NCBI RefSeq assembly: GCF_046105845.1
Contig: NZ_CP151004.1
Length of the DNA: 64,000 bases
Strand: one strand, 5' to 3'
Source: Escherichia coli
Lineage (GTDB): Bacteria > Pseudomonadota > Gammaproteobacteria > Enterobacterales > Enterobacteriaceae
Shown here: positions 42,159 to 42,213 of the stretch, in pieces
Position numbering within the stretch: the first letter of the stretch is position 1
How the letters are laid out: every line of letters begins with the position of its first letter
Position numbers and translations under genes: made by a program
The notes under the pieces: model-generated
What the model was told of the DNA's origin: nothing
The model's input: only the letters and a program-made list of their open reading frames with translations
Database searches by the model: none

Positions 42159-42161
42159 TTT

Positions 42162-42189
42162 TTTCCTCCAGTGCGATAGCTGGAGGAAA
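42162..42189 (+). other. Intergenic hairpin between the EIIA and porin genes
   Basis: 10-bp inverted repeat TTTCCTCCAG-tgcgatag-CTGGAGGAAA immediately after the EIIA stop and 25 nt before the porin start; no U-tract follows. Confidence 0.4.
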
Positions 42190-42213
42190 TTATTACACTC
42201 TTAAGGATAAGTC

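Follow-up and report, generated by a model that had tools for sequence, protein, structure and literature searches.

A conserved hairpin ahead of the porin gene in the Escherichia coli bgc operon and its possible role as an RNA stability barrier

Within Escherichia coli, RNA 3' ends are protected from PNPase and RNase II at stable stem-loops that have no U-rich sequence after them (PMC6061677). Conserved protective structures, located at 3' ends or at 5' ends generated by RNase E, set unequal mRNA levels in many E. coli operons, the prototypes being malEFG and papBA (PMC5927463). At malE-malF the intercistronic structure is a REP sequence, a dispersed element with hundreds of copies, whereas at papB-papA RNase E cuts upstream of a hairpin and the 5' stem-loop stabilises the papA mRNA. 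The motif of RNase E is given as RN|WUU, and protective structures inside downstream ORFs are described as well (PMC5927463). Here we describe a hairpin inside the bgc operon, between the genes for a PTS EIIA protein and a carbohydrate porin, which is conserved in other Enterobacterales and may be a boundary of a similar type.

The window analysed here is a stretch of 64,000 nucleotides from an E. coli genome. In it a gene cluster lies between dgcZ-ydeE-eamA and marBAR, flanked by eamA and marB. Judged by its gene set and the type of its regulator, the cluster is the bgc beta-glucoside operon of E. coli described by Neelakanta, Sankar and Schnetz (2009), as far as that operon is summarised in PMC3585215. 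Its genes are the following:

39625-40323, minus strand: divergent gene for a GntR regulator with a UTRA domain (Pfam)
40522-40833, plus strand: PTS EIIB gene (Pfam)
About 40948-41819, plus strand: remnant of the EIIC gene (Pfam; BLAST against intact E. coli loci)
41841-42158, plus strand: EIIA gene of the PTS lactose/cellobiose family (bgcI-like), a 105-aa ORF (PF02255 PTS_IIA, E = 3e-32; RefSeq annotation of orthologous E. coli loci)
42214-43806, plus strand: LamB-family carbohydrate porin gene (bgcH-like; Pfam PF02264 and PF11471, the Sugarporin_N extension)
43904-45349, plus strand: GH1 6-phospho-beta-glucosidase gene (bgcA-like), the last gene of the operon (Pfam PF00232)

Upstream of these genes, the regulator-EIIB intergenic region contains at 40438-40453 the sequence TGTGA-TCAATG-TACCA, a putative CRP site by its resemblance to TGTGA-N6-TCACA. 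The operon belongs to the variable genome and is also found in many other Enterobacterales. Among complete E. coli genomes the locus is present in 2521 of 5426 (about 46%), including Nissle 1917, IHE3034 and O26/O103 strains, and the DNA of the present copy is 99.8% identical to that of E. coli AST215 and 95-99% identical to that of about 2500 other E. coli. In this genome two of its genes are damaged. BLAST comparison with intact E. coli loci (region 40909-41819) revealed a 451-bp internal deletion in the EIIC gene at about 41328, which removes the middle of the gene and shifts the reading frame; the Pfam matches cover positions 1-97 and 255-319 of a profile of 319 and fall on two ORFs in different frames. 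The porin gene carries a 2-bp (TT) deletion near 43750, and its frameshifted product, of 530 aa versus 557-559 aa in two other loci (L001 and L002), loses the C-terminal ...AEVWW and with it the C-terminal strand. Because of the EIIC lesion and the porin frameshift together, the bgc-like operon of this genome is regarded as a pseudogene cluster. Another, independent inactivation of the porin gene is found in E. coli TUM14664 (L039, positions 2558-3340), where an IS1 has inserted between the porin Shine-Dalgarno (SD) sequence and the start codon and an IS903B truncates the porin.

The hairpin fills the 55-nt gap that extends from the EIIA stop codon TGA (42156-42158) to the porin ATG at 42214. 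As DNA the gap reads TGA ttt TTTCCTCCAG (42162-71) tgcgatag CTGGAGGAAA (42180-89) ttattacactctt AAGGA (42203-07) taagtc ATG (42214), and as RNA UGA-UUU-UUUCCUCCAG-UGCGAUAG-CUGGAGGAAA-UUAUUACACUCUU-AAGGA-UAAGUC-AUG. An earlier, sequence-only reading of the window had noticed a perfect 10-bp stem between the EIIA stop and the porin ribosome-binding site, without a U-tract, and all three parts of this description hold: the arms, at 42162-42171 and 42180-42189, are 100% complementary over 10 bp and stand 8 nt apart; the domain matches place the stop of the PF02255 gene at 42158 and the start of the PF02264 gene at 42214; and the bases after the stem are UUAUUACAC, with nothing reported at the site by a terminator scan. 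RNAfold adds an 11th pair, U42172·G42179, which gives 11 pairs and a 6-nt loop. The gap can be divided as follows:

42159-42164, plus strand: U6 run from the EIIA stop to the conserved stem core (sequence)
42165-42173, plus strand: 5' arm, conserved core CCUCCAGUG (alignment A2, pair counts, RNAalifold consensus)
42174-42177, plus strand: loop, CGAU within UGCGAUAG (sequence and length unconserved in orthologues)
42178-42186, plus strand: 3' arm, conserved core AGCUGGAGG, an SD-like purine run (alignment A2)
42187-42202, plus strand: A/U-rich single-stranded spacer AAAUUAUUACACUCUU (sequence, alignment)
42203-42207, plus strand: porin SD sequence AAGGA, 6 nt 5' of the ATG and outside the hairpin (sequence)

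The pairs that U42162-64 form with A42187-89 are present in E. coli only, and the outer pairs are otherwise not conserved (alignment columns 13-14). In the minimum-energy fold the porin SD region and the spacer are unpaired, the SD sequence (42203-07) and the ATG (42214) lying 14-25 nt beyond the helix. On its own the hairpin has a predicted energy of -17.8 kcal/mol (about -18). Folded in a 91-nt context it reaches z = -2.39 relative to dinucleotide shuffles, 4 of 200 of which were equally or more stable, and the 36-nt window that contains it ranks third for stability in the operon and is among the most stable 0.26% of such windows in the 64 kb. Perfect 10-bp stems gave 10 matches in the window (8 distinct hairpins) versus 0.85 ± 0.85 in dinucleotide-preserving shuffles, roughly a tenfold excess, and these perfect hairpins are features rather than noise. 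That the present one is beyond chance is settled by its covariation-backed conservation in other species.

For the comparison among species, one genome per species was scanned with the intact porin as query, which yielded 21 loci, and 4 more loci were added via protein look-ups; a homologue search returned, among its best 120 matches, close relatives only. The gene order GntR / EIIB-EIIC-(EIIA)-porin is kept across the loci. At the same place, 21 orthologous loci carry a stem of 9-12 bp (-11.6 to -21.5 kcal/mol) that is built from different sequences, and the genera concerned are Escherichia, Salmonella, Citrobacter, Kluyvera, Klebsiella/Raoultella, Enterobacter, Cedecea, Ewingella and Buttiauxella. 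The two arms are UUUCCUCCAG/CUGGAGGAAA in E. coli, CCUCCAAU/AUUGGAGG in C. koseri, GCCUCCGGUU/AAUCGGAGGC in S. salamae, CUCCUUCAGCC/GGCUGAAGGAG in K. georgiana, CCCUCAGCC/GGCUGAGGG in K. intermedia, GCCUCCGGUU/AACCGGAGGC in Enterobacter and GCCUUUAGCC/GGUUAAAGGC in Ewingella. The loops are unrelated in sequence and measure 4-6 nt or more, and the 3' arm closes with GGAGG, GAAGG, GAGGG, AGAGG or AAAGG, depending on which of the 21 species is considered. In loci that possess EIIA the stem starts 3-10 nt past the EIIA stop, outside the translated region, and from the end of the core stem to the porin ATG there are 24-35 nt, the distance being exactly 30 nt in 11 of the 21 loci. At the position of the spacer a box, AUAAUAAUUAUA, is conserved only in the clade of Kluyvera, Enterobacter and Cedecea.

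The pattern of substitution in the stem is that of a base-paired structure. In alignment A2, standard pairs occupy 95.2% of the cells versus 81.7 ± 1.4% in shuffles, and eight of the ten pairs have changes on both sides (37 cells, versus 11 ± 4 shuffled). The covariation score is 0.50 versus 0.26 ± 0.03, a value reached by 0 of 500 shuffles, although this control ignores phylogeny and the fraction should not be taken as a probability. When the partner columns are slid by 1-3 positions, pairing falls to 23-56%. Alignment A1 gives the same picture, and RNAalifold recovers the same 9-bp core. Most substitutions run via G·U intermediates (CG/UG/UA at three pairs, GC/GU/AU at one, AU/GC at another) and one pair (GC/UA) switches by transversions; the outermost core pairs, C42165-G42186 and C42166-G42185, are invariant in the 21 species. 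On the plus strand there are 8 G·U cells versus 3 A·C cells, and this excess on the coding strand mildly favours an RNA of the sense strand. Judged by these alignments, the hairpin is kept by selection via compensatory changes in about twenty enterobacterial species.

The stem is nevertheless dispensable in some lineages, since two operons that look intact do not have it in full: in Erwinia psidii (L021), whose porin is 60% identical, the hairpin is missing, and a second locus (L027) retains a 4-bp remnant of the stem. In Raoultella sp. (L009) the hairpin has gone in a deletion that also took part of EIIA. Within E. coli the hairpin has three main alleles. The B2-type allele, seen in IHE3034 and Nissle 1917 (L037 and L038, positions 201-270), has lost one C from the 5' arm and has a changed last loop base; 10 pairs still form, one of them a U·G wobble, and the hairpin is about 3-4 kcal/mol weaker.

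The fate of the hairpin where EIIA has been lost bears on its relation to the two neighbouring genes. Eleven loci are without an intact EIIA gene. In the EIIA-less loci of Enterobacter and Cedecea the spacer retains the last bases of EIIA and its stop (TTTAATTTYCACYCGCC, versus TTAATTTCACCCGCC in Ewingella), and EIIA was therefore deleted secondarily. The hairpin of the EIIA-less loci is equally stable and lies 17-80 nt past EIIC. Even after the deletion of EIIA, the hairpin remains linked to the porin start, from which it is separated by about 30 nt with little variation. Four Kluyvera loci of this kind (L006, L007, L013 and L020) have in addition a second small hairpin, UUCGUC-AGGGAAA-GACGAA and variants of it, in the interval between the EIIC stop and the conserved hairpin.

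The reading that we find most probable, while holding it tentatively and at somewhat less than even likelihood, is that the hairpin is an ordinary RNA stability barrier within the operon, one that would bring about differential mRNA decay in the manner of malE-malF or papB-papA. The elements behind this choice are a stable stem that may have any sequence, a free loop, the lack of a U-tract, a site just past an ORF and some 30 nt of open RNA downstream, and it is for their combination that we take the hairpin as a boundary element of differential decay. Since the loop varies freely in sequence and length, what is kept would seem to be the stem and not a specific contact, which is expected of a nuclease barrier. 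The sequence-only reading had mentioned an RNA processing or stability element as one possibility, which could uncouple the expression of the porin from that of the PTS genes, and of its proposals this one agrees best with the compensatory changes in some twenty species, the free loop and the absence of a U-tract.

On this reading, the sense-strand stem-loop would mark the border between a PTS segment (EIIB-EIIC-EIIA) and a porin-glucosidase segment, and as a barrier to RNases it would give the two halves of one polycistronic mRNA different lifetimes. This could be achieved in two ways. In the first, of the malE-malF type, an endonucleolytic cut or a Rho-dependent stop would occur downstream, and 3'-to-5' exonucleases would then trim the RNA back until they halt at the stem, so that the PTS message would be spared. 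In the second, of the papB-papA type, RNase E would cut at the stop codon, where the RNA is unpaired and rich in U (GA|UUU), and the porin-GH1 message would then begin with a 5' stem-loop, followed by an open ribosome-binding site of about 30 nt; the stem-loop would shield this message from further attack by RNase E. As to which side the hairpin protects, we lean slightly towards the first version. Protection of the PTS segment at its 3' end is suggested by the tight apposition of the stem to the stop codon and by a similar U-tract-less hairpin at the operon's own end (45376-45399). For protection of the porin segment at its 5' end speak the constant distance to the porin start, the persistence of the hairpin with the porin after EIIA loss, and the sequence GA|UUU (42157-42161), which in E. 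coli fits the RNase E motif and is unpaired directly 5' of the stem; with a motif so short, such a match carries little weight. A search of the literature on bgc+ strains found no transcript-end, half-life or abundance data for the bgc operon.

Set beside the described systems, the bgc hairpin has much in common with malE-malF and the other 3' protective structures (PMC5927463). It is an intercistronic stem-loop without a U-tract just past a stop codon, its loop is irrelevant and its structure is conserved in relatives, and in this role it would block PNPase and RNase II and spare the upstream segment. Two properties of the malEF and papBA type of protective stem-loop are found here, a stable structure that separates two operon segments and lies beyond, or just at the limit of, the translated RNA, and conservation in related species (21 loci, 95% paired). 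It differs from the REP sequence of malE-malF in being single-copy per genome and unrelated in sequence, and from the protective structures of PMC5927463, which lie mostly inside the downstream ORF, in being intergenic. With papB-papA it shares an intra-operon location just ahead of a gene whose product is exported to the cell surface, an RN|WUU-type sequence unpaired directly 5' of the stem (in E. coli) and an open ribosome-binding site that follows; unlike there, the motif is absent in some bgc orthologues, for instance in S. salamae and Klebsiella sp., and the bgc cleavage site is a candidate one. The stem-loops without a uridine-rich tail that are found at the ends of E. coli transcription units are likewise energetically stable and have no uridine-rich 3' sequence, but the bgc hairpin is internal to its operon. 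As it ends 27 nt before the start codon of the porin gene, there is no untranslated room for the loading of Rho, unless translation of the porin fails.

The spacing of about 30 nt between helix and ATG could point instead to a role in translation initiation, and the rival that we consider unlikely, if the least so, is that the helix delimits the porin ribosome-binding site on its 5' side or hides the SD-like GGAGG purine run. In one variant it would shield the site from the sequence upstream and prevent ribosomes that end at EIIA from sliding or re-initiating; in another the masked purine run would be a decoy or standby site for 30S subunits. The distance from stem core to ATG (24-35 nt) is maintained even in the clade of Escherichia, Salmonella and Citrobacter, where the spacer has diverged, the fold leaves the porin SD and the spacer unpaired, and the 3' arm is in 21 of 21 species a purine run ending in AGG or GGG and paired to a 5' arm of the CCUYY type. 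Such a run is, however, what compensatory evolution by transitions only would preserve anyway, the functional SD sequence AAGGA (42203-07) lies outside the hairpin, and no conserved alternative pairing between the 5' arm and the true SD was seen by inspection. Moreover, as the hairpin is equally stable 17-80 nt past EIIC in the EIIA-less loci, with no stop codon nearby, coupling to a terminating ribosome is not required.

A stronger form of this idea, which seems to us rather improbable, is that BgcH-type porin genes have in this helix, instead of a passive nuclease barrier, a dedicated cis-regulatory RNA, in which an SD-like 3' arm is masked by an anti-SD-like 5' arm and opening would expose a site for 30S subunits. 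If this were true, the helix would be opened by the ribosome ending at EIIA or by an unknown RNA or protein, and through the standby or decoy 30S site the porin would be translated at a level of its own, independent of the PTS genes. Some more specific devices were considered and rejected. Neither the porin SD nor the start codon is in the helix, both being unpaired, as opposed to an SD-sequestering hairpin; an RNA thermometer, considered in view of the low-temperature bgc phenotype reported in PMC3585215, was discarded because the SD lies outside the helix and a structure of about -18 kcal/mol at 37 °C was judged too stable to melt. By inspection, a CsrA site was rejected, the GGA being in the stem and not in the loop and the GGA of the SD region being unconserved (AAGGG or AAGGU in several species), and so was recoding or a SECIS element after the UGA, as the stop is UAA in several orthologues and UAG in L027 and read-through would meet another stop after 6 codons.

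The hairpin might also act on transcription, as a weak attenuator or pause hairpin that reduces read-through into the porin and GH1 genes, a possibility raised in the sequence-only reading that we consider doubtful at best. With intrinsic terminators and attenuators it shares a stem of 10-11 bp (-17.8 kcal/mol) with a G+C-rich core directly past an ORF, and the E. coli tail, with its UUAUU, has 4 U in 8 nt. It is set apart from them by its place inside an operon and by the lack of a U-tract, here and in the orthologues, and for the latter reason it is not an intrinsic terminator: the terminator scan found no match at the tail UUAUUACAC, and in the orthologues the first 8 nt past the stem contain only 1-4 U (mean 2.8), with A or C in most cases as the first base and AAA as a frequent beginning, which tells against the earlier suggestion of a partial attenuator. 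The locus is also without a BglG-type antiterminator. Antitermination of the BglG/SacY type, with a RAT and a terminator, was rejected on the same grounds, as the only regulator is of the GntR+UTRA type (Pfam) and the scan finds no terminator.

A hairpin that could be cited for attenuation is found at the analogous bglB-bglH junction of E. coli K-12 (L028, positions 3222-3289, minus strand), where a stop codon is followed by a 13-bp hairpin, a spacer of about 35 nt, an SD sequence and the ATG of a LamB-family beta-glucoside porin (z = -2.35). In that case the upstream gene is GH1, the tail is U-richer (UUAAUUCUUUCUUU) and the only sequence shared with the bgc hairpin is a short UUCAG. The bglGFB genes and bglH have separate ancestries (PMC2646131), and hence the bglB-bglH hairpin may be an old bglGFB terminator. 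A general class of hairpins that precede porin genes was therefore rejected, the structure at malK-lamB being only weak (z = -0.92).

Less probable still is an element at the level of DNA, in which the inverted repeat would be an operator over an internal porin promoter and the A/T-rich box after it would serve as the -10 element. In other sugar regulons, for example scrK|scrYAB, there is a promoter before the porin gene, and matches to TATAAT in 5-6 of 6 positions occur 19-28 nt 5' of the ATG in loci of Kluyvera, Klebsiella, Raoultella and Cedecea. It is because of this TATAAT-like box in the clade of Kluyvera, Klebsiella and Cedecea that the internal promoter keeps a low weight. However, -35 matches reach 1-4 of 6 everywhere, the best promoter-like match in the window scores 7/12, and the scan lists none on the plus strand here. 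The fixed spacing and conserved half-site of an operator for a dimeric transcription factor are not found either: the arms change, the loop varies (4-6 nt or more), and G·U intermediates are tolerated. The arms are also unlike the GntR/HutC operator type that is quoted for relatives, AAATGTaTAGACAttTa (PMC3585215).

Comparably remote is the proposal that the hairpin and the A/U-rich single strand after it form a docking module for Hfq and a small RNA, through which the porin would be repressed separately from the PTS genes. Porin mRNAs are classic targets of small RNAs, most enterobacterial porins being repressed by them, and the chb PTS operon contains an intercistronic site that pairs with ChiX. 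In about half of the bgc orthologues the hairpin is followed by an (AAU)3-like sequence, AAAUAAUAAUUAUA, yet E. coli, Salmonella and Citrobacter do not have this A/U box. The ChiX site at chbB-chbC resembles the bgc hairpin in being an intercistronic RNA element of a lactose/cellobiose-family PTS operon that is functionally tied to a sugar porin, but in bgc the complementarity to ChiX is at chance level (z = +0.23) and the sequence that would have to pair is held in a stable helix. Duplexes predicted for ChiX, MicA, RybB, CyaR, OmrA, OmrB, MicC, MicF and STnc560 with positions -75 to +40 of the porin start gave z-values from -1.3 to +0.9, none of the nine small RNAs doing better than their shuffled versions in this crude duplexfold comparison, which takes no account of accessibility.

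That the hairpin has no function, and is a quasi-palindrome kept perfect by template-switch correction during replication as it drifts with the operon, is scarcely credible: the arms of inverted repeats can be homogenised without selection and two lineages lost the stem with no visible damage to the operon, but the stem spans at least eight genera, with porins only 74-91% identical, while loop and spacer diverged, the coding strand has 8 G·U cells versus 3 A·C cells, and the position relative to stop and start is kept.

As regards known families of elements, a covariance model (R1) run over the window and 26 loci (292 kb) as a check for REP/BIME or other dispersed repeats found one copy per locus and none elsewhere, and the number of places with the hairpin per E. 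coli genome has a median of 1; the hairpin is not REP-like, since it is single-copy. A search of the window and of an orthologue against Rfam, at gathering and E-value thresholds, returned no family for the hairpin and only chance matches of at most 20 bits. The bgc hairpin is thus, as far as these comparisons reach, a new locus-specific intercistronic element absent from Rfam, for which the covariation support is unusually clean for a motif so small. The sole Rfam match at the gathering threshold in the window is a full-length STnc560, an Hfq-binding small RNA, at 36870-37083 (282 bits). It lies just downstream of a GGDEF/CZB gene (dgcZ-like), about 5 kb from the operon, and no pairing between it and the porin leader is predicted.

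Where an operon encodes an outer-membrane porin together with inner-membrane and cytoplasmic proteins, its products are needed in unequal amounts. A conserved structure placed precisely where the PTS genes give way to the porin gene is a likely site for setting their ratio. If the hairpin is a stability barrier, its function would be a conventional one that leaves the general picture unchanged, and in this genome the operon is already inactive. The bgc hairpin nevertheless offers a compact test case in which 3'-protective, 5'-protective and translational intercistronic hairpins may be told apart.

Three other structures were noted in the operon. Its most stable local structure (-18.6 kcal/mol) lies at 41977-42012, inside the EIIA ORF, and consists of AUGCGCCUG-UCUU-CAGGCGCAU and outer pairs; it is not obviously kept in the Raoultella remnant sequence. 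Inside the porin ORF, about 250 nt past the start, there is a perfect 10-bp hairpin at 42461-42487 (UAUCAGCGAC, 7 nt, GUCGCUGAUA). Finally, the hairpin at 45376-45399 is also a perfect one of 10 bp, located 27 nt past the GH1 stop and before the convergent marB; neither strand has a U-tract there, and it is at this hairpin that the operon probably has its protected 3' end.
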